Assembly: GCA_964450845.1 (NCBI GenBank)
Contig: CAYVGZ010000040.1
Location: 1 to 14,044 of the forward strand
DNA length: 14,044 nucleotides
Reading direction: 5' to 3'
DNA from: an uncultured Candidatus Bathyarchaeia archaeon
GTDB taxonomy: Archaea; Thermoproteota; Bathyarchaeia; Bathyarchaeales; Bathycorpusculaceae
Positions 1,181 to 14,044 of this stretch are shown in pieces. A program made the translations under genes and the position numbers. Every line of letters begins with the position of its first letter. Positions within the stretch are counted from its first letter, which is position 1. The notes under the pieces were generated by a model that searched no databases, was not told the origin of the DNA, and saw only the letters and a list, made by a program, of their open reading frames with translations.

Positions 1181-1463
1181 CGTCACAAATCACATCAAAA
1201 GGTGAGCATTCGGCAGCAACAATAAACACACGCACAGCAACCAGTATAAAAAACGCTGAAAATCCAAAAACAGCCGAAAAATGAGGTTTTGGTGCATGCC
1301 AGTTGCTGTTTTAAGGTAATATGATGTTCTTTTTAAAGTGTGATGTGTGACATCATAGACTCCTTAAACAATGCAAATCTCCATAATCTTTATATCTCTT
1401 ATAGTAAAATTGTGATTTGTGATGCAACATGGGTGTATCGTTCGTAATCACATGTAAATCACA
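1176..1463. repeat. Cluster of three 19-bp repeats (consensus TGTGATNTGTGAYRYMAYA) plus a fourth variant site
   Basis: Site A (-) 1176-1194 TGTGATTTGTGACGTCACA. Site B (+) 1339-1357 TGTGATGTGTGACATCATA. Site C (+) 1411-1429 TGTGATTTGTGATGCAACA. Site D (-) 1446-1463 TGTGATTTACATGTGATT. Nine TGTGA/TCACA pentamers in about 290 bp. Confidence 0.85.
1389..1396 (+). promoter_or_regulatory. Archaeal TATA box for the membrane-anchored wHTH gene
   Basis: TTTATATC about 80 bp upstream of the start codon. The implied TSS (~1420) lies inside repeat site C. Confidence 0.55.
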
Positions 1464-1475
1464 GAGGTGCACTGT

Positions 1476-2189
1476 TTGGATGAGGTTATACTAATTCTTG
1501 CGGGTGTTTTGCTTGCCGTAACCGTTGGCGCCGCAATTAAGTATTATAAACAACTTGGAAGGGCTCAGCGAGAGTATGAAAAGGCTGAACAAGTTGTCGA
1601 GGACATTGTTTTGAGTTTTAATAGACAGATTAGGCAGGAAGCTAGTAAGTTAGAGCTTGTTGCATACAAGGTTGAGGCAGTTTCTTCAAAAAGTGATAAA
1701 GCTTTGATGAAGGCGGAAGAAGCAGATAAGAAATTGCTGTCGTTAGAAGGCAAAATTGACGTTACCTTAGGGGACAGAGAAAAGGTGTTAATGAGACTGG
1801 ATGAAATTGACAAAAAGGTGCGTGATACTGTTGTATCACAAGAGGTATTAACTGCCAAAATATCTGCGATCGAGGAACAATCCAGACAGCTTTCAATGTT
1901 TCCCGAAGCAAAAATTGAAGCAGTAATGCCCATAAAAAGAGAGAAAGTTTTAGCTCCCTTAACAGAGACCGAGCTATCTGTTCTGGAAATACTGTCTTTG
2001 GAAGGCCCTAAAACGGCGCCCGAAATTAAAGAAAAAATCAAGCTCAGCCGAGAGCACACGGCTAGGTTGATGAAAAAGCTTTACGAAAGTGGTTATCTGG
2101 AAAGAGAAACCAGCAAAATTCCTTTTAAGTATAGTGTTAAGAAAGAAATGGAAAAACTCTTGAGAAAAGCGGAAAGCGAAGCAACATAG
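1476..2189 (+). CDS. Single-pass membrane protein: N-terminal TM anchor, long coiled coil, C-terminal winged HTH (MarR-like)
   Basis: TM VILILAGVLLAVTVGAAI followed by basic KYYKQLGR. About 125 aa of E/K/L-rich heptad region. C-terminal LTETELSVLEILSLEGPKTAPEIKEKIKLSREHTARLMKKLYESGYLERETSKIPFKYSV is a wHTH. TTG 1476 has GAGGTG 6 nt upstream; the ORF track start is GTG 1467. Confidence 0.9.
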   Translation: MDEVILILAGVLLAVTVGAAIKYYKQLGRAQREYEKAEQVVEDIVLSFNRQIRQEASKLELVAYKVEAVSSKSDKALMKAEEADKKLLSLEGKIDVTLGDREKVLMRLDEIDKKVRDTVVSQEVLTAKISAIEEQSRQLSMFPEAKIEAVMPIKREKVLAPLTETELSVLEILSLEGPKTAPEIKEKIKLSREHTARLMKKLYESGYLERETSKIPFKYSVKKEMEKLLRKAESEAT

Positions 2190-2193
2190 CATA

Positions 2194-3738
2194 CTACGAA
2201 GAAGGAGGCTCCTGTTCGTTCAACCGTTTAAGTCGTTTCTCCATCTCTGAAAGGCTCTTTGATTCTGAAAGCCCATAGTCTTCCTTTCTCCTCTTGTCCA
2301 AGTAGTCTGGATAATGTGTGACCTTTATTGGTACAGCAAACCTGATTTTCGGCTCAGATATGAGCAATGCTTCGCCAACATCGAGCATTTTTATTTCCGT
2401 GTCACTATACTCTAAATAGGGCGTGTTTTCGGTCAGATATATTCTGTCCTTTCGCAACTCTGTCTTCATAATGACCTTGGTCCACAGTTCAGCGAAAACG
2501 TCAAAGTTAATCCTTGAAGGACGTGGTGTTACAGCGTTGAGTCCAACTCGGTATTTGCGGTATGTTAGGGCGATGTCTGAAAATATGGTTCTAGGCTTGT
2601 TTGGGTCAAGAAACTCGTGCGCCTCTTCAAGTGTTATGAGAAGCGTGGGCAGATTCTTCCATTCTTCATAATTTTCTTCCCACATGCATTTATAATGGTT
2701 TGCAACCGTTGAAGCCGTGAGGCAGGTGATTTTGTTTTGCTCCTCGGAGCTTATTCCTGAGATGTCTATAAGGCATGTTATTCCCTTACATACGTTCTGG
2801 GCAACGCTGTCAATGAAGCTGTAATCGGAAGCTGGGAAAATGTCGTGGGAAAGTGATGACAATTTAAGCATTAGGGCTTCAATCACGTGTTTCATCTTGT
2901 AGTCTGCGAGATGCCCTACCCCGGCGTGCCCTTCTGCCCCATAAACCTCTCTAGTTTCCTGAATCCAACTCTTGCCCAGCCTTTTGTAAAGTTTTCGAGC
3001 AAGCCGAAATTGAGGAAGACCTATGTCAGGAAACAGAGTAATAAGCCTCTCCGGGGTGATTGTGAATAAGCCCACAGTCATTTTTCCATCACGTGCGGAA
3101 TAATACTGGACCTTGCTGTGGAACAGTGGATGATCTTTTAGGCCTTTTTGCGGTTTAATCCCCTTGCCTTCAAGAAGCTGGCCGGCGAAGTCGAAAATGA
3201 GAGCCACTGTTTTAGGGCTGTTGTCAATGCTTTGTGCATTGAGAATTAGTTCGGTGTTTGTTTTCCCCGAGCCAGTCATTCCAAACATGCCCATCATTAG
3301 TGGTATGGCTTCAATATTTATGCCCGCTGACCCCAATAGTTGCTCTCCAGAGCGGAGGCATCCAACTTCTAGTTCCCCTGAGAGTTTGAGGATGGAACAG
3401 TCTTCTTCGCTAGCTGTGTACACTTTGTCTTTATAGTTTGGGTTGAAGGTTGGGGAGCGTCCTTTGCCAGCTCTCTTCTCTAAGAAGAGAATAGCTTCGA
3501 CGCTCCTGTAAGCTGAATACGGTCCGAAGGCTTCTTTGCCTTCTGCTTCACGCAGCTGCTCAATTGTGTCAAGTGTGGAGCTGCTCTCGGCGTTAACAAC
3601 CCTTGCGTAGAAGCCCCTCTCACCTGAATCTATTCGAACAATTTGTCCAAAAGAAAGATTGATTTCCTTGTTGAGAAAGAAAGATACGGAGTCTCCCTTC
3701 GTTCCACACACAAACCCTATAGGTTCAGAACTATTCAC
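2194..3738 (-). CDS. herA: HerA-like FtsK/HerA superfamily ATPase (HAS barrel + DUF87), divergent
   Basis: N-terminal HAS-barrel-like PIGFVCGT...FGQIVRI...YARVVN, Walker A GMTGSGKT, Walker B LLITLEEAHEF, YRKYRVGL arginine-finger region. Likely start GTG 3738, overlapping the nurA stop and preceded by GGAGTGGTGGA; the ORF track start is 3774. Confidence 0.88.
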   Translation of the reverse strand: MNSSEPIGFVCGTKGDSVSFFLNKEINLSFGQIVRIDSGERGFYARVVNAESSSTLDTIEQLREAEGKEAFGPYSAYRSVEAILFLEKRAGKGRSPTFNPNYKDKVYTASEEDCSILKLSGELEVGCLRSGEQLLGSAGINIEAIPLMMGMFGMTGSGKTNTELILNAQSIDNSPKTVALIFDFAGQLLEGKGIKPQKGLKDHPLFHSKVQYYSARDGKMTVGLFTITPERLITLFPDIGLPQFRLARKLYKRLGKSWIQETREVYGAEGHAGVGHLADYKMKHVIEALMLKLSSLSHDIFPASDYSFIDSVAQNVCKGITCLIDISGISSEEQNKITCLTASTVANHYKCMWEENYEEWKNLPTLLITLEEAHEFLDPNKPRTIFSDIALTYRKYRVGLNAVTPRPSRINFDVFAELWTKVIMKTELRKDRIYLTENTPYLEYSDTEIKMLDVGEALLISEPKIRFAVPIKVTHYPDYLDKRRKEDYGLSESKSLSEMEKRLKRLNEQEPPSS

Positions 3739-4744
3739 TCCACCACTCCCACTCGAACGCATGCTTAATTCCATGAAGCTCGTCAGCGAAGCTACATGAA
3801 AATTCTTCTCGGCGAAGTATTTCTAATAAGCCACTCTGGGCGAGTACATTCTCGACTTGATCGTGGTAAGAAAGAAGCATCGCATCGGAGGGTGCAGAGA
3901 AGTCGTGGGCAAGCCAAAGGGGGACAGGATATCCAAGACATCGGGGGTCTTCGGCTACTGCAGTCAAAGGAGAAAGGGTCTCGCTTACTTGTTGGTCTGT
4001 TAAGTATTCCATTATGTCACAACGAAAAACGCGGGAACTTCCTTCGCACAACCTAACAAGAGATATATCTCCATACAAGCTTTTGTCCTTGTCAGCTTCT
4101 CTGATTGGATGACAAACCCACGTATCATAAGGAGAGAGTATACTCGTAGTAGCTATTAGGTCTCTTCCTTTTTCATCATGAAGTGAGGGAGAGTTTTTGC
4201 TAACAGCGAGAAGGGTGATCCGATCTTTTTCACATTTCTCATAAAGTGCCACTCGGAATTTTCTTTCACCGCCGAAGTATCCGCCACCATCAAGTAAGAG
4301 ATAATTACTACGAGGATTAGTATGCTCGTAGTAGAAAAGGCTAGTTTTGTTCTGAAGAAGGTTAAGTGCCATTTGACTTTCTAACTCAATTCTTACATCT
4401 GTCAGAAAGTTACTACGAGTACGTGCATTACCAACTACAGTGCATATTCTTTCCTGATAGCCCCAATCAATATTGCGCTCTTTAACTGAGGCATACGCTA
4501 CTCGCATTAGGTAGATTCCCCAGTTGTTTGCCCTCTTGAGTGTTCTTGTCGAACAATCAACGGCAACGAACCCTCCTAGAAATTCGCTGATTTTTTTCAA
4601 GGGCTTTATTAAAGCCGCATCTGGTTTGACCGATATCATTGGCTCTTCTTTCACTTCAACTGCTCCAGCAACTCTTCCTTTGTCTATGTAAAACTTGAGT
4701 TTCTTCTCCATTTCAGCAAAGTCTGTCTTGATATTGCTGCTCAT
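3731..4744 (-). CDS. nurA: NurA-domain nuclease (RNase H-like fold)
   Basis: VAVDCS (first catalytic D), IELESQMA (E), LLLDGG (D) and C-terminal LGYPVPLWLAH typical of NurA. GGAGG RBS at 4751-4755. Directly upstream of the HerA-like gene. Confidence 0.85.
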   Translation of the reverse strand: MSSNIKTDFAEMEKKLKFYIDKGRVAGAVEVKEEPMISVKPDAALIKPLKKISEFLGGFVAVDCSTRTLKRANNWGIYLMRVAYASVKERNIDWGYQERICTVVGNARTRSNFLTDVRIELESQMALNLLQNKTSLFYYEHTNPRSNYLLLDGGGYFGGERKFRVALYEKCEKDRITLLAVSKNSPSLHDEKGRDLIATTSILSPYDTWVCHPIREADKDKSLYGDISLVRLCEGSSRVFRCDIMEYLTDQQVSETLSPLTAVAEDPRCLGYPVPLWLAHDFSAPSDAMLLSYHDQVENVLAQSGLLEILRREEFSCSFADELHGIKHAFEWEWWSE

Positions 4745-4862: not shown

Positions 4863-5291
4863 TCAGGGTATTTCCTGTTTAACTATAGCTTGCGGAAAAC
4901 TTGCCAGTTTGTATTTCAAGCGATTAGAAGCCCCAGCTTTCACTAGTACTCCTTTGTTCGCCATTCTGGCAAAATACGTGGCCACGGTGCTGAGACTTAT
5001 CGGTTCTTTGAATTCCTGTTCGTAGGCTGATTGGATCTCTCTTGAAGAGAACCAGACCATGGGAAAGTGTTTCTGGATCAGCATGCGAACTTTTTCGTAT
5101 TTAGAGACCCAATTGCCTGCAACCATTGGATTGCCTTCAGAGTTTCCGGCGCTACTTGACACTCCGCCCAACAATTCTACCAAATCCAAAAGGCGAACAG
5201 CCTTTTCCCGAGTTATTTGCCCTTCAAAGGACACAGTATATTTATTACCTTCACTATCGAACAGCTCAACACGCATCTTTCTTGCGGGCAT
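4863..5291 (-). CDS. Origin-adjacent two-domain protein: small N-terminal beta-alpha domain plus C-terminal winged HTH
   Basis: MPARKMRVELFDSEGNKYTVSFEGQITREKAVRLLDLVELL, then a linker, then KVRMLIQKHFPMVWFSSREIQSAYEQEFKEPISLSTVATYFARMANKGVLVKAG..RLKYKL (wHTH pattern). Transcribed divergently from cdc6 across the origin. Confidence 0.85.
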   Translation of the reverse strand: MPARKMRVELFDSEGNKYTVSFEGQITREKAVRLLDLVELLGGVSSSAGNSEGNPMVAGNWVSKYEKVRMLIQKHFPMVWFSSREIQSAYEQEFKEPISLSTVATYFARMANKGVLVKAGASNRLKYKLASFPQAIVKQEIP

Positions 5292-5487
5292 CAGCAATCT
5301 ACACCGTAGCTGGTGTTCACACTTTACAGTTCACAAGTTATAGCTATTACGGTGAAAAAGTAATAAGTAAAAACGTCATAGCAAGCCTCAAAGAAGAAAA
5401 CACCAAAAAATTGCAGAGGTTTTTACTTTACAACCGTCACAGTTTTTCTAAACAGGAAATAAGCAAAAGACAGCCATTATGTTGGTA

Positions 5488-5509
5488 TCTCCAGTAGAAG
5501 GGAAGGGGT
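5488..5509 (+). promoter_or_regulatory. ORB (origin recognition box)
   Basis: TCTCCAGTAGAAGGGAAGGGGT matches the TTCCAGTGGAAAC-G-string ORB pattern. Confidence 0.75.
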
Positions 5510-5756
5510 GGCTTTTTCACAGAAAAAAGACATAAAGAAGTTAATACCGAGTAAAACAAAACCCAAAAAGACGCAGTCTCAAGTTAACTTCACATAATCT
5601 TCTCAACCGTGTGAAATTATCTAACAGATTGGAAAAAGGTATTTTTCCACTAACCTTCGAAACTAGCAAAGGAGCCTTTAAGTCTAAATAAAAACAGAAA
5701 GTAAAGAAGCAAAAACGTAGCTTAAAATTATTGAATAAGAAAAAAAGAAAGCGTCA

Positions 5757-5777
5757 CCCCTTAGTTTCCAATGGAAC
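5757..5777 (-). promoter_or_regulatory. Canonical ORB, left of the DUE
   Basis: Reverse complement GTTCCATTGGAAACTAAGGGG: near-consensus dyad plus G-string. Confidence 0.9.
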
Positions 5778-5799
5778 AGGGTAAACTTTTGCCGTTATC

Positions 5800-5925
5800 G
5801 ATTATTTTAGAGAGTATTCATCTAAAAAATTTTACAAAAATTATTATAATACATTTTTTATTCTTAGTTTTTAGAGTATAATTTAATTTTTAAGTTAATG
5901 CTATAACTATTCTTCATCCAAACAG
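5800..5925. other. AT-rich DNA unwinding element (DUE)
   Basis: 5821-5900 has only 9 G/C in 80 nt and lies between two inversely oriented ORBs. Confidence 0.8.
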
Positions 5926-5927
5926 TT

Positions 5928-5948
5928 TTCTACAGGAAATTTGGGGGT
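5928..5948 (+). promoter_or_regulatory. ORB, right of the DUE
   Basis: TTCTACAGGAAATTTGGGGGT: degenerate dyad plus G5 string, inverted relative to the 5757-5777 ORB. Confidence 0.7.
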
Positions 5949-6090
5949 GTGGCTATGGTCCTTAAGCTTTTTGTCTTCAGGCTTTCGGTTTTCTTTTAGT
6001 TTTCTTGCGCCACTAATTTAGTTTTTTGTATGGCAGAACTTATTTTCTGAAGAAAAAACAAAGCGTTACCTTTGCTTAAGAGGAATTACA

Positions 6091-7341
6091 ATGAGCGATA
6101 CTAATGTGCTTGACGATGTGTTCAAAAAATCTTTTAACAACATAAATATTTTTCAGGATAGAGAGGTTCTACGGCACGACTATCTGCCAGATACGTTACC
6201 GCACCGAGATGAACAGATTAGGCAGATCGGCGAAACTATGGCGCCCGTTCTAAAAGGAGCGAGAGGTTCTAACGTTTTTATTTATGGAAAAACTGGAACT
6301 GGAAAGACAGCTGTAACAAAACATGTGCTCAGCCATCTTGAGGTTAAAGCAAAGGAATTTAATGCACCTGTTAAGTTCTGTTACGTGAACTGCCGTTTAG
6401 CAGGAACTGAGTATCGCGTTTTTGCTAGTTTATGTCAAAGAATAGGCAAATCTGTTCCTTTTACAGGGCTATCTGTTGGGGAAGTTTTTGACAGATTCCA
6501 AGCAGGGTTGGATGACTCCAAGATTATATTTATCATAGTTTTGGACGAAATCGACGCTTTGATCAAAGCACATGGTGATAACCTTCTCTATGAACTAACA
6601 AGAATAAATGAAACCTTGCACGAGAGCAAGGTATCTCTCACTGGCATATCCAATGACCTACGGCTGAAAGAGCTTCTTGATCCTCGAGTTTTTAGTTCAC
6701 TTAGTGAAGAAGAGATTGTTTTTAGTCCCTACGATGCTAGTGAATTAAAAAATATCCTTTTTGAGCGTGGCAAATTGGCGTTCCATGACGGTGCTTTGTC
6801 TGATGGCGCTTTGAGTATTTGTGCGGCTTTAGCCGCTGCGGAGCATGGTGATGCGAGACGGGCATTGGATTTGCTACGAGTTGCTGGTGAAGTTGCTGAG
6901 CGAAAAGGTGCGAGCACTGTAATTGAGGAACATGTTCGGGAGGCAGAGAAACACATTGAACACAACCGTGTTATTGAGGCTCTCCAAAATTTGCCTTTAC
7001 ACTCAAAACTCGTGGTCTTAAGTATTCACCACCTAAGAGAAGCAGATGCCAACCGGGTCATTACTGGCGAGATTTATGAAGTTTATAGTGAGCTTTGTGG
7101 AGAATTAGGCGTCACTCCATTAACCCAACGTCGGTCAAGCACGCTGGTGAATGAACTTGATTCTATGGGACTGTTGAATTCGAAAATCGTAAGCATGGGG
7201 AGGTATGGACGTACGAAGAAGATTAGGTTGGAGATAACGCGCACTCTTATTAGAGATGTGTTCGCTAATGACAGCAGGCTTGGACGTTTGATTGTTTATG
7301 CGCCGAAATGCCTTTCAAAACCTGCAAATAGTAGGAGTTGA
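6091..7341 (+). CDS. cdc6: Orc1/Cdc6 replication initiator
   Basis: FQDREVLRHDYLPDTLPHRDEQI, Walker A GKTGTGKT, YVNCR, Walker B IIVLDEID, GDARRALDLLR, C-terminal wH domain ending GRYGRTKKI. Confidence 0.98.
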   Translation: MSDTNVLDDVFKKSFNNINIFQDREVLRHDYLPDTLPHRDEQIRQIGETMAPVLKGARGSNVFIYGKTGTGKTAVTKHVLSHLEVKAKEFNAPVKFCYVNCRLAGTEYRVFASLCQRIGKSVPFTGLSVGEVFDRFQAGLDDSKIIFIIVLDEIDALIKAHGDNLLYELTRINETLHESKVSLTGISNDLRLKELLDPRVFSSLSEEEIVFSPYDASELKNILFERGKLAFHDGALSDGALSICAALAAAEHGDARRALDLLRVAGEVAERKGASTVIEEHVREAEKHIEHNRVIEALQNLPLHSKLVVLSIHHLREADANRVITGEIYEVYSELCGELGVTPLTQRRSSTLVNELDSMGLLNSKIVSMGRYGRTKKIRLEITRTLIRDVFANDSRLGRLIVYAPKCLSKPANSRS

Positions 7342-10083: not shown

Positions 10084-11067
10084 ATGGGTGAATTACGCAA
10101 GATTCAGCGCACTCCAGGTGGAACCTTCTTTGTTTGCTTGCCTAAGCCTTGGGCTGAACGCTATGGTTTGAAACGAGGCTCCGTGGTAGCAGTTACTGAA
10201 GCCAGCGATGGTAAACTCTTAATAGACACAGAGTATGCTGTTGAGCCTTCTCCCCGCACCATTACTTTAAAGCCTGGTCCCTATCTGAGTCGTGAAATCG
10301 TAGGAAAGTATCTGCTCGGCTTCGACATTATCACTGTTGAGGCGAAGAATCGTATTAGCTTTGAGGTTCGGGATACCGTTAAGACTGCTGTCAGTCGGTT
10401 AATTGGATTGGAAATCGTTGAGGAAGATTATTCACGTATTGTTATGCAGTGTTTGTTAGAGCCTTCAAGCTTTCCTCCTGAAAAGATTCTTCGCCGCGGC
10501 TACATAATCGCTGCTGGTATGCACCACGATGTTGTTAATGCATTAGTAGATGGAGACATAAACTTGGCTAAAAGCATCATAGCCCGCGACGACGAAGTTA
10601 ACAGACTTCACTTTCTTTTAGTTCGCATTCTCCGCACCATAATCCAAAATCCCAGCCTAACCGAGAAACTTGGTGTCCGTCCAATCGAATGCTTAGACTA
10701 CCGACTTGTAGCAAGCTTGGTGGAAGCTATTGGTGACGAATGCGTACGAGTGGCGATGAAAACGATTGAGTTAAACGGCACAAAACTAGGTGAAGATTTA
10801 AAGAAATCGCTTGTCGACTTTCACTTGGTTTGCTTTGAAGCCCACGAAAATGCTCTAAAAGCCTTTTTAGCTGGCGACACAGGTTTAGCTGAAAACGTGC
10901 GCCTTATTCGAGAAAAAGTTGAAAAAACGTCTTTAAACATCGAAAAAATTGCAAAAATGCAGTCTCTTGACGCTTTGCCCCACATTCTAGCAGTAACTTC
11001 AATTCTGAGGCAAATTTATGAACACAGCGTAGACATAGCAGACTTGGTGATGCCGAAAAAACTGTAA
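10084..11067 (+). CDS. phoU: Archaeal phosphate-uptake regulator: AbrB/SpoVT DNA-binding domain plus two PhoU domains
   Basis: RKIQRTPGGTFFVCLPKPWAERYGLKRGS (AbrB), YLLGFDII, and PhoU helices with RDDEVNRLHFL, LVEAIGD and IYEHSVDIAD. Confidence 0.9.
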   Translation: MGELRKIQRTPGGTFFVCLPKPWAERYGLKRGSVVAVTEASDGKLLIDTEYAVEPSPRTITLKPGPYLSREIVGKYLLGFDIITVEAKNRISFEVRDTVKTAVSRLIGLEIVEEDYSRIVMQCLLEPSSFPPEKILRRGYIIAAGMHHDVVNALVDGDINLAKSIIARDDEVNRLHFLLVRILRTIIQNPSLTEKLGVRPIECLDYRLVASLVEAIGDECVRVAMKTIELNGTKLGEDLKKSLVDFHLVCFEAHENALKAFLAGDTGLAENVRLIREKVEKTSLNIEKIAKMQSLDALPHILAVTSILRQIYEHSVDIADLVMPKKL

Positions 11068-11077
11068 ATTGCCCCTT

Positions 11078-12298
11078 TTAGAAGGGGAGTTTACCTATTT
11101 TTTGTGGTGCTTTGGCCAATGAAACATGTTCACTCATTCTTAATTCAATGGTATACTGTACCTCGCCACTTATTTGACAATCAGATTCGATTGTGATACT
11201 TTCACCGTAAATGTTTTCTGCATATGCTCCGCTTCTTAGAAAAATCCTTTTTCCATAGATATTTTCTGCGCGCGCATCTCGTCCAATAATGACTTGTTCA
11301 GCCTTTACAGATCCGCGAACTTCACCTCTTCTTCCTATTTCAATAAACCTCGCAGTCACGCCGTCAACAGTTGTTATTGATCCACCCACTTCTACACTCT
11401 CTTCAACAGTGGCTTTTCTTGAACGTATTACGCCGCCGACTTCGATGTTTTTTGTTGCCAAATCTCCGTCGATTTCTGCTTTACCTCCCACTTCTAGGTT
11501 TCCAGAAAGTTTTAACGACCCGCCGATTTCTACTCTTCCTCCTACGTCCATTTCGTCACCTTCGCCTGAACCTGTTATCTCTACTCTTCCTCCTACGTCA
11601 ATTTCTCCAAACTCTAAATCTCCTTCAACCCGAAATGAGCCTCCTACATCTATTTTTCCGCCCTTGTTTTTACCATTAAGCCGAACGGTTCCACCAACAT
11701 CTATGCTTTCAAATTCTAGTGGGCTATTTGATTCAAAACTTCCTCCTACGTCAATTTCTTGGATTGTCCCGCCGGTAACTTTTGCTGCCCCTCCTACATC
11801 CAATTTTGTTATGTTCACTTTAGACTCGATTGAAACACTGCCTCCCACATCGATTTTCTCTGCCTTCGTTTCTCCTTTGGCTTTAAAGCTTCCGCCAACA
11901 TCTATGTTTTCGGCTTTTACATTCCCATCAACTTTTACGCTTCCGCCAACATCAACTTCCTCAACTGTCAGATCCTTGTTTACGTATAGGGCTTCGTCGA
12001 CATCTATGTGCCGTGCAGTCATGTTCCCGTACACTTCTAGGCGCCCTTCTTCGACTTCAACTCTGTTTGTTATTTGTAGGTCTCCATGGATTGTCACGTT
12101 ATCCTCTGCTTCTAGGTTTTCCGCCAAAACGTTGCACTCAAAGGTGTTGCCTCCTTCGCAGTAAATGGTTCCAGAAACTTTCACTGTTGGCGGTTTACCT
12201 GTTCCGTTTATTGTTGAATGTCTGCCTACTAGTAAGTCTCCTTCAACATGGTCTATTGTTGTTGTGCTTCCTGGTGAAGTGGATGTTTTGCTATTCAT
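11078..12298 (-). CDS. Bactofilin-like (polymer-forming cytoskeletal) beta-helix repeat protein, about 406 aa
   Basis: Twelve ~17-aa repeats centred on [DE]VGG with alternating V/I/G. Start ATG 12298 has a GGAGG RBS; the ORF track start is 12349. Confidence 0.75.
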   Translation of the reverse strand: MNSKTSTSPGSTTTIDHVEGDLLVGRHSTINGTGKPPTVKVSGTIYCEGGNTFECNVLAENLEAEDNVTIHGDLQITNRVEVEEGRLEVYGNMTARHIDVDEALYVNKDLTVEEVDVGGSVKVDGNVKAENIDVGGSFKAKGETKAEKIDVGGSVSIESKVNITKLDVGGAAKVTGGTIQEIDVGGSFESNSPLEFESIDVGGTVRLNGKNKGGKIDVGGSFRVEGDLEFGEIDVGGRVEITGSGEGDEMDVGGRVEIGGSLKLSGNLEVGGKAEIDGDLATKNIEVGGVIRSRKATVEESVEVGGSITTVDGVTARFIEIGRRGEVRGSVKAEQVIIGRDARAENIYGKRIFLRSGAYAENIYGESITIESDCQISGEVQYTIELRMSEHVSLAKAPQKIGKLPF

Positions 12299-12368
12299 AC
12301 AATATCCTCCATTTGAGTCTATATTCACTGATTTAAAAGGGAAACTCACGTTTTGTGACTACTCTTTG

Positions 12369-13916: not shown

Positions 13917-14044
13917 GCCGGGGTGGCGGAGTGGTTATCGCGCTGGCCTCGAGATCGGCAGTCAAAATCAAGAGGCTGGATAGAAGACAAGTAAGCCAGT
14001 GGGCCTTTGGGCTCGCAGGGGTTCGAATCCCTTCCCCGGCGCCA
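13917..14044 (+). tRNA. tRNA-Ser(CGA) with a 40-nt intron at canonical 37/38 (13954-13993) and encoded CCA
   Basis: Acceptor GCCGGGG/CCCCGGC, discriminator G, CCA. Anticodon stem CTGGC/GCCAG with CT-CGA-G|A loop. Long variable arm GGGCC/GGCTC. T arm AGGGG-TTCGAAT-CCCTT. Bulge-helix-bulge at the exon-intron junctions. Confidence 0.95.

Follow-up and report, generated by a model that had tools for sequence, protein, structure and literature searches.

In Bacillus subtilis, the RacA/ram system anchors the replication origin to the cell pole by means of a small protein in which a helix-turn-helix (HTH) domain is combined with pole attachment and which recognizes origin-proximal sites. RocS of Streptococcus pneumoniae links chromosomal DNA to the membrane (PMC11500499, PMC13042908) and RicO of Staphylococcus aureus (site ricS) was described as bridging DNA and membrane (bioRxiv 10.64898/2026.03.06.710092). 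No archaeal factor joining a chromosomal origin to the membrane was found in the literature searched. The present work deals with a stretch of 14,044 nucleotides (nt; contig CAYVGZ010000040.1, hereafter the window) from a Bathyarchaeia genome (1.64 Mb, 93% complete). It carries, close to a predicted replication origin (oriC), the gene of a protein, P0001, that associates an N-terminal transmembrane (TM) helix, a coiled-coil stalk and a C-terminal winged HTH (wHTH) domain. The bacterial proteins have in common a small size, a sequence-specific HTH together with membrane or pole attachment, and sites concentrated near the origin; P0001, which has TM signals and a site cluster beside oriC that is unique in the genome, may be organized likewise. 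RicO, RocS and RacA would be its closest functional analogues, without being homologous to it. We put forward, tentatively and at slightly less than even confidence, that P0001 ties origin-proximal DNA to the membrane via TGTGAY sites. An extension of this proposal, held with more reserve, is that the P0001 family and the TGTGAY array form a centromere-like handle of Thermoproteota chromosomes, by which the origin region would be fixed to the membrane in Bathyarchaeia and Nitrososphaeria and to another structure in lineages whose orthologues lack the TM helix.

The P0001 gene (1476-2189, + strand) is an open reading frame (ORF) whose translation is 237 amino acids (aa) long. Its start codon is TTG, and the sequence GAGGTG is found 6 nt before it (1464-1469). 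A database entry matches the protein with 100% identity, and full-length relatives are found down to ~26% identity. An exhaustive profile-free search for relatives yielded 565 clusters at 50% identity with E ≤ 1e-3 (230 with E ≤ 1e-10), a conservation that we take to exclude a chance origin of the architecture. Family loci were confirmed by a pattern scan of species genomes in 595 cases, the best 80 of which all belong to Bathyarchaeia; these 80 species loci served for close comparisons and 20 loci from other families for distant ones. P0001 is matched at E ≤ 1e-5 in 224 of 301 sampled Thermoproteota genomes, the weakest of which may be generic MarR matches. Orthologues are present in Nitrosopumilus adriaticus, N. 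maritimus (P0377), Nitrosotalea, Methanosuratincola, Culexarchaeum and Nezhaarchaeales, where they are annotated merely as hypothetical, winged-helix or MarR-family proteins. Neither a characterized member of the family nor a paper on any member was found in the literature searched.

A single TM helix is predicted at residues 3-22 (1482-1541, + strand), with the N-terminus outside and the C-terminus inside the cell, and all 61 aligned relatives have one. In a Kyte-Doolittle scan with 19-residue windows, residues 3-21 score best (mean 2.51) and form the sole strongly hydrophobic window of the protein. Two acidic residues (D2, E3) are found before the helix and four basic ones (K22, K25, R29, R32) after it. 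The same polarity characterizes the 61 diverse relatives, in which the segment N-terminal to the helix has a median length of 3 residues and a net charge of −0.9 while the 15 residues that follow the helix carry +2.2; the positive-inside rule is obeyed in 57 of them. The helix is kept in nearly all full-length representatives of the family, also in the Nitrosopumilaceae orthologues. These data agree with two claims of a preliminary description of the window, namely that an N-terminal TM helix followed by basic residues places the C-terminus in the cytoplasm and that there is no extracellular sensor domain, just 2 residues being predicted outside the membrane. Judging from these topology signals, P0001 is predicted to be a single-pass N-out/C-in membrane protein.

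The AlphaFold2 (AF2) model of P0001, computed from a 61-sequence alignment (mean predicted local distance difference test score, pLDDT, of 90.9), shows an unbroken helix from residue 2 to residue 139 (pLDDT 97-98). Its part past the TM helix (residues 23-139; 1542-1892, + strand) is assigned as a coiled-coil stalk on the basis of this helix, of heptad periodicity and of a profile match to solved coiled coils: the family profile matches the coiled coils of myosin, tropomyosin and the MCP chemoreceptor in the PDB. The 3.5-residue hydrophobic periodicity of the stalk has a power of 1.48, compared to 0.22 +/- 0.20 for shuffled sequences (0 of 200 reach the observed value), and is significant in 55/61 relatives; the stalk has no proline. 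It had been described as a coiled coil of ~125 aa; its nature is borne out by the model and the heptad statistics, but its measured length is ~117 aa, which would correspond to ~17 nm if fully helical. In the 61 relatives, a median of 168 aa (160-175 for the 5-95% range) separates the end of the TM helix from the recognition helix. The length of the stalk is thus constrained while its sequence is variable. The stalk opens with a juxtamembrane motif, YY..(5-8)..EYxxAKxxVxDIVxSF, whose conservation is well above that of the rest of the stalk (alignment A1). This segment (1542-1620, residues 23-48) could be a partner-binding site or an oligomerization trigger.

The stalk is followed by a linker (residues 140-163; 1893-1964, + strand) that is predicted to be flexible (pLDDT <50 at residues 140-154) and contains a conserved IPIxxExAL motif (alignment A1). 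The C-terminal part consists of a MarR/TrmB-type winged helix (residues 164-221) and a terminal helix (223-236; together 1965-2183, + strand), as predicted by Pfam, AF2 and Foldseek. Its score with Pfam MarR (PF01047) is 34.1 bits for a cut-off of 24.6, residues 162-213 covering positions 1-52 of the 59 of the profile, and with Pfam TrmB (PF01978) 29.3 bits for a cut-off of 25.6, the wHTH core alone being matched. The nearest folds found by Foldseek are MarR/ArsR DNA-binding domains, all generic wHTH matches. The recognition helix REHTARLMKKL is nearly invariant across the family, and R192, H194, R197, R210, P216 and Y219 are invariant in alignment A1, the last two being located in the wing. 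The C-terminal wHTH claimed in the preliminary description is therefore confirmed, and with it the reading of the ORF as a membrane-anchored coiled-coil winged-helix protein, all parts of which were recovered from the sequence and the model. A homodimer prediction with two copies of P0001 and alignment A1 gave scores of 0.17 and 0.16 compared to a mark of 0.42, which says nothing either way on dimerization. P0001 would be an oligomer, and it could affect origin position, segregation or initiation.

The candidate binding sites of P0001 are found immediately upstream of its gene, in agreement with the preliminary description, which had placed the gene just after a repeat array. Nine of the 21 TGTGAY matches of the window are concentrated in four composite sites at 1176-1463, the last of which ends 13 nt upstream of the start codon. 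Site A (1176-1194) is the palindrome TGTGACGTCACA plus ATCACA, and overlaps the stop codon of the upstream gene P0002 (701-1180, + strand); sites B, C and D are at 1339-1351, 1411-1423 and 1447-1463, respectively. The heptad doublet TGTGAYNTGTGAY occurs four times in the 1.64 Mb genome, three of them within the array. The fourth copy (C47:11359) lies inside a nitrilase-like ORF and was rejected as a functional site, being considered a coding coincidence. The corresponding spacers of the 80 related species, whose length is steady at ~300-330 nt, display the same concentration: 216 doublets are found in 25 kb of spacers and 21 in the 919 kb outside (~375-fold enrichment), each of the 80 spacers has at least one doublet, and TGTGA density is 27/kb compared to 2.3/kb outside. 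Sites A-D and a TATA-like block are conserved in an alignment of 81 spacers. A relative with a complete genome of 2.2 Mb has 20 looser doublet matches, 7 of them clustered at the P0001 locus. TGTGA repeats are also found upstream of orthologues in Nitrosopumilaceae, Methanomethylicia, Culexarchaeia, Nezhaarchaeales and others. An Rfam scan of the window gave no family in the conserved 300-nt spacer, so that a non-coding RNA at this position is not supported.

The TGTGA repeats persist in genomes where the upstream gene codes for a CBS-domain protein and not for P0002. This independence, together with the near-invariant recognition helix, points to P0001 as the reader of TGTGAY, and we infer that P0001, rather than P0002 or the convergently encoded P0289 (see below), would recognize these sites. 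In one relative of the same class (G270; L118:7215-8135) the P0001 gene and the TGTGAY spacer are both absent and the P0002-like gene directly adjoins the P0289-like gene, tail to tail, while a motif cluster upstream of P0289 and an origin recognition box (ORB) are kept. This is a single case; two other relatives (G021 and G246) that match neither winged-helix gene were not counted as absences, the locus being possibly unassembled. The genome of G270 also carries a pyruvate phosphate dikinase-like gene (879 aa) between the ORB and orc1. The encoding together of three putative DNA binders makes site assignment ambiguous, and in archaeal systems of the ESCRT type contacts between proteins can be made by winged-helix domains (PMC11188069). 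P0001 might accordingly be imagined as a membrane scaffold whose winged helix binds protein and recruits P0289 or P0002, to which the TGTGAY array would belong. We regard this as very improbable: the invariant R192, H194, R197 and R210 lie on the recognition helix and the wing, as in DNA-binding MarR/ArsR proteins, and the repeats follow the P0001 gene when P0002 is not adjacent and vanish when the gene is lost. A connection of P0001 to ESCRT or CdvA was rejected in the absence of a matching architecture in PMC11188069.

Motif-bearing DNA extends beyond the array. A TGTGA/TCACA-bearing element (45-95), recognized by an inverted-repeat match to site A, is located in the coding sequence of an aminotransferase gene, and all 21 doublets counted outside the spacers of related species sit upstream of the spacer, in or near this gene. 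In 44 species the third codon positions of the element are 0.75-1.0 conserved over ~14 codons (~40 nt), compared to a baseline of ~0.5. This conservation argues for selection on the DNA itself, in an unrelated gene 1.4 kb from the P0001 start codon. A role as operator is unlikely for motif DNA in such a context. On the other side of the P0001 gene, a second cluster, of the TTCACA type, is defined by density and conserved blocks between the P0289 start and the ORB core (5312-5615). It has six matches in 300 nt and is one of three such clusters in the genome. In 73 species, the density of TTCACA-type motifs is 11-19/kb in the first 400 nt and ~2/kb in the orc1-proximal half.

The predicted oriC core (5489-5949) is composed of ORBs and AT-rich DNA with conserved blocks (31% GC over 5501-6000). 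Two ORBs fit the pattern used (TTCCAGTGGAA with ≤2 mismatches, 2-8 nt, GGGGT), at 5489-5509 (+ strand) and 5756-5776 (− strand), and a degenerate one is found at 5926-5949 (+ strand). The pattern has only three matches in the 1.64 Mb genome; the third (C49:5626) is inside the coding sequence of an HtrA-like protease and was rejected as a functional site. The origin is followed by the gene of the Orc1/Cdc6 initiator (6091-7341, + strand; Pfam Cdc6_C 2.4e-27 and Cdc6_lid 4.3e-25) and, to its right, by an Endo_dU gene and the gene of the PolD small subunit, a classic archaeal origin neighbourhood. The first ORB lies 3.3 kb downstream of the P0001 gene, close to the ~3.5 kb given in the preliminary description. 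This distance is ~1.2 kb in relatives devoid of a HerA-like ATPase gene (2194-3774, − strand) and an overlapping NurA-like gene (3731-4744, − strand), both identified by weak family scores. HerA-like and NurA-like genes are found in 35 and 30 of the 80 related loci, respectively, and the pair is therefore considered a variable insertion (2194-4744) outside the core module. The HerA-like protein scores 56 with the CedD and HerA equivalog models, whose cut-off is 600.

The core module has the conserved order P0002 / P0001 / P0289 / ORBs / orc1 in Bathyarchaeia and beyond. P0002 (~159 aa, HTH-like) is recognized by synteny: a P0002-like gene is found ~800 nt upstream of P0001, in the same orientation, in 80/80 Bathyarchaeia loci. 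It has no Pfam or NCBIfam match, and an Atlas search retrieved Bathyarchaeota clusters only, plus a weak lead to Sigma70_r4. In other Nitrososphaerota, a P0002-like gene directly abuts short genes coding for a TM helix and a winged helix. These short family versions (143-146 aa; L103:8980-9411 and L104:8874-9314) have a TM helix, a short linker and a wHTH, almost without stalk; they come directly after the P0002-like gene, with neither spacer nor TGTGA array nor nearby ORB. P0289 (142 aa; 4863-5291, − strand) is a conserved neighbour whose AF2 model (pLDDT 74.7) comprises an N-terminal beta-beta-alpha unit, a disordered linker and a wHTH, the fold search returning generic wHTH matches only. 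A P0289-like gene is the convergent neighbour in 76/80 close loci and in most of the 20 distant loci, and orc1 is found beyond it in 73/80 close loci. Among the distant loci, orc1 and the PolD-DP1 gene follow in Nitrosopumilaceae and several other families, and 13/20 have the ORB pattern no more than ~1.3 kb away from the gene or gene pair, for a background of ~3 per 1.64 Mb. This linkage is also seen without nearby orc1 in Methanomethylicia, Culexarchaeia, Nezhaarchaeales and a Thermoprotei metagenome-assembled genome (MAG). In Methanosuratincola, 1.1 kb of AT-rich, non-coding DNA faced by the P0289-like gene is bounded by two inverted ORBs; in Methanosuratincola verstraetei this region (L102:10104-11178), beside the pair of P0289-like and TM-less winged-helix genes, is a candidate origin for which no orc1 is found within 9 kb. 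ORB-like repeats of another flavour, identified by eye, are present in N. adriaticus in the spacer that separates orc1 from the P0289-like gene.

Such a linkage to ORBs across Thermoproteota classes, independent of orc1 adjacency and kept by the TM-less orthologues, would also be expected of an accessory factor of origin activity. P0001, together with P0289 and P0002, would then bind by the ORBs and modulate initiation, either sequestering or insulating the origin after firing or helping or hindering the loading of Orc1 and MCM, and the membrane anchor would be a lineage-specific addition. The abutment of the TTCACA-type cluster on the ORB core is consistent with this explanation, for which there is an archaeal non-initiator precedent, the ucm-binding protein (UBP) at Sulfolobus oriC1 (PMC12141716). 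We nevertheless find it unlikely. The densest array is 3.3-4.3 kb from the ORBs in the window (~1.2 kb in loci without the HerA/NurA insertion) and outside the origin core; the origin-abutting cluster is of another flavour and persists without P0001, so that it may belong to P0289; and P0001 resembles neither UBP nor any replication factor. The haloarchaeal origin-associated genes oapABC were also considered and found to be unrelated, OapA being a small GTPase.

The mechanism that we favour as a possibility is one in which the stalk of P0001 forms a parallel coiled coil in the cytoplasm, ending in the flexible linker and the MarR-type winged helix. An oligomer, most simply a dimer, would bind the TGTGAY heptad-doublet sites that lie beside oriC, within and near the region upstream of its gene. 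Fixed in the membrane and bound to the array, it would hold origin-proximal DNA at the cell membrane, while, by occupying the sites on either side of the TATA box and the transcription start site (TSS), it could provide feedback on its own transcription. The preliminary description had preferred a tether to a sensor. The membrane-fixed ruler-like stalk, the invariant reading surface and the presence of one site patch per genome beside the origin make the tether the better fit. This part of the claim is partly supported, by the architecture, the lack of a sensor, the length constraint on the stalk and the site cluster by oriC; it is weakened by the TM-less orthologues and by the sites that flank promoters.

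Several observations indeed weigh against the tether. No TM helix is found in the orthologues of Methanosuratincola, Methanomethylicaceae, Culexarchaeum, Nezhaarchaeales and one Thermoprotei MAG, which have kept their coiled coil and wHTH as well as TGTGA repeats and proximity to ORBs. The conserved core function should therefore need no membrane anchor. Homologues without TM helix had been named in the preliminary description as evidence that would speak against a tether; they exist in the Methanomethylicia-type lineages, whereas nearly all full-length relatives keep the helix. Taken over the sequences compared, the function at the core of the family would be to bind DNA near origins by means of a coiled-coil oligomer, and membrane anchoring is, by predicted topology, a feature of Bathyarchaeia, Nitrososphaeria and some further families rather than of the whole family. 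The assignment of TGTGAY to P0001 depends on co-occurrence and on the single gene-loss case, and the composite sites number only ~4-6. A TATA box is predicted at 1389-1395 (+ strand) in a conserved CTTTAAATC context of the 81-spacer alignment, and the P0001 TSS, positioned by the standard archaeal TATA-to-TSS spacing, falls in site C. Sites C and D thus flank the predicted TSS and the 5′ untranslated region, a layout of ordinary autorepression, and related motifs are found just downstream of the TATA box in the P0289 promoter. Ordinary autoregulation would account for at least part of the array.

The promoter layout gives weight to an explanation that we consider possible but rather doubtful, in which P0001 is a membrane-bound one-component-style transcription factor for its own gene, P0002, P0289 and possibly orc1. 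The TM helix would have a regulatory function (sequestration, or release by proteolysis or a membrane signal) and no structural role in positioning DNA. The MarR/TrmB type of the wHTH and the location of the sites at the two promoters are in line with such a factor, the loss of the array along with the gene is as expected for a promoter-operator unit, and the TM-less orthologues would simply be soluble versions. The membrane-bound ArnR and ArnR1 proteins provide an archaeal precedent (PMC6396743). On the other hand, P0001 lacks a sensor domain, whether in the cytoplasm or outside, and a local repressor has no need of a length-constrained coiled coil of ~117 residues. The composite sites, 4-6 over a stretch of 1.4 kb and with some of the motif DNA selected for inside an unrelated coding sequence, exceed what an autoregulator needs; no regulon-like sites are found elsewhere in the genome; and the gene is persistently linked to ORBs and not to any regulated pathway.

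Should the centromere-like handle hold true, the P0001 family and its array would represent the first device for anchoring or segregating a chromosomal origin to be described in archaea lacking ParABS, and an archaeal form of the membrane attachment of the replicon model that arose independently of bacterial RacA, RocS and RicO. The P0001 locus is a small and concrete system, made of an anchor, a ruler-like stalk and a DNA head, a unique site cluster by oriC and two co-conserved putative DNA binders, and the family reaches cultivated ammonia oxidizers (N. maritimus P0377), which makes experiments feasible. If P0001 is merely an autoregulated membrane-bound regulator, its sensor-less architecture with a deep linkage to the origin is still unusual and requires an explanation.

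Three further features were noted in the window. A protein with an AbrB/MazE-like N-terminus and two PhoU domains is encoded at 10084-11067 (+ strand), a position kept in 43/80 loci. In the origin neighbourhood, 11078-12349 (− strand) codes for a protein of 423 aa that has three stretches of bactofilin domain (Pfam 4.9e-14) and is found at this place in only 7/80 related loci. Rfam identified a tRNA of 125 nt at 13917-14041 (+ strand; 47.5 bits) that was not called by ARAGORN and probably contains an intron.

The resemblance of P0001 to the bacterial anchors does not extend to sequence or domain homology, as judged from Pfam, NCBIfam and PDB matches. In RicO, RocS and RacA the DNA-binding domain is N-terminal and the helix that targets the membrane, or the contact with DivIVA, is C-terminal, an order that is reversed in P0001. 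Their anchor is an amphipathic helix or the contact with DivIVA, whereas that of P0001 is a predicted integral TM helix, and its head is a wHTH of the MarR type. Their sites are dispersed over the origin domain while the candidate sites of P0001 form one 1.4 kb patch at its own gene. ToxR/CadC-type regulators are single-pass proteins with a cytoplasmic N-terminal OmpR-type wHTH near the membrane and a periplasmic sensor domain. They share with P0001, as predicted, the single-pass organization and the cytoplasmic winged helix, but in P0001 the wHTH is C-terminal, of the MarR type and at the far end of the stalk, with 2 residues outside. Plasmid centromere binders such as ParR (at parC) and AspA of pNOB8 recognize a direct-repeat array that overlaps their own promoter and serves as both centromere and operator. 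The short repeat array over the promoter of P0001 is similar and could serve both roles, and AspA is among the Foldseek matches of the P0001 head (rank 13). The anchor and the stalk of P0001 have no counterpart in these systems, and no partner NTPase (ParM, ParA, SegA) is found in the conserved module. In ParABS and SegAB systems the ParB/SegB-type binder is encoded with its ParA/SegA ATPase, and neither ParA, SegA nor ParB domains were detected in the window genes scanned.

Archaeal regulators provide the other points of comparison. ArnR and ArnR1 of Sulfolobus acidocaldarius are membrane-bound one-component transcription factors that act on promoter boxes; besides its N-terminal HTH, ArnR contains a HAMP-like domain and a sensing domain, and its C-terminal part carries two TM helices (PMC6396743). 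Like P0001, as predicted here, they are Thermoproteota DNA-binding proteins fixed in the membrane by TM helices. P0001 has the opposite polarity: from its single N-terminal TM helix a long coiled coil leads to the wHTH at the C-terminus, and sensor and HAMP domains are missing. Moreover, the ArnR proteins control archaellum and pili genes and, unlike the P0001 gene, have no link to the origin. UBP is a saddle-shaped, beta-rich protein of 111 aa that recognizes a specific motif, binds hundreds of sites and contacts MCM (PMC12141716). It differs from P0001 in not being membrane-bound and in its fold, and the two are not homologous. Canonical MarR proteins (~140-150 aa) have N- and C-terminal dimerization helices and a ligand pocket that are absent in P0001, of which a core of ~55-60 residues alone matches; Foldseek alignments to full MarR chains give an rmsd of 16-18 Å outside the wHTH. 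TrmB combines an N-terminal wHTH with a C-terminal effector-binding domain, while the wHTH of P0001 is C-terminal and no effector domain is present. The NCBIfam scores of P0001 with Lrs14 and Sta1 are below cut-off (25.9 for 90 with NF040939 and 22.2 for 80 with NF053606, respectively). P0001 does carry the signature of its own family, namely full-length alignment, a recognition helix REH[TA][AS]RLMK and a PYxY wing. With this signature, the convergent P0289-like gene and the ORBs all present, P0001 is, by sequence and gene context, a member of an uncharacterized, origin-linked Thermoproteota family whose proteins consist of a coiled coil and a wHTH, with or without a TM helix.

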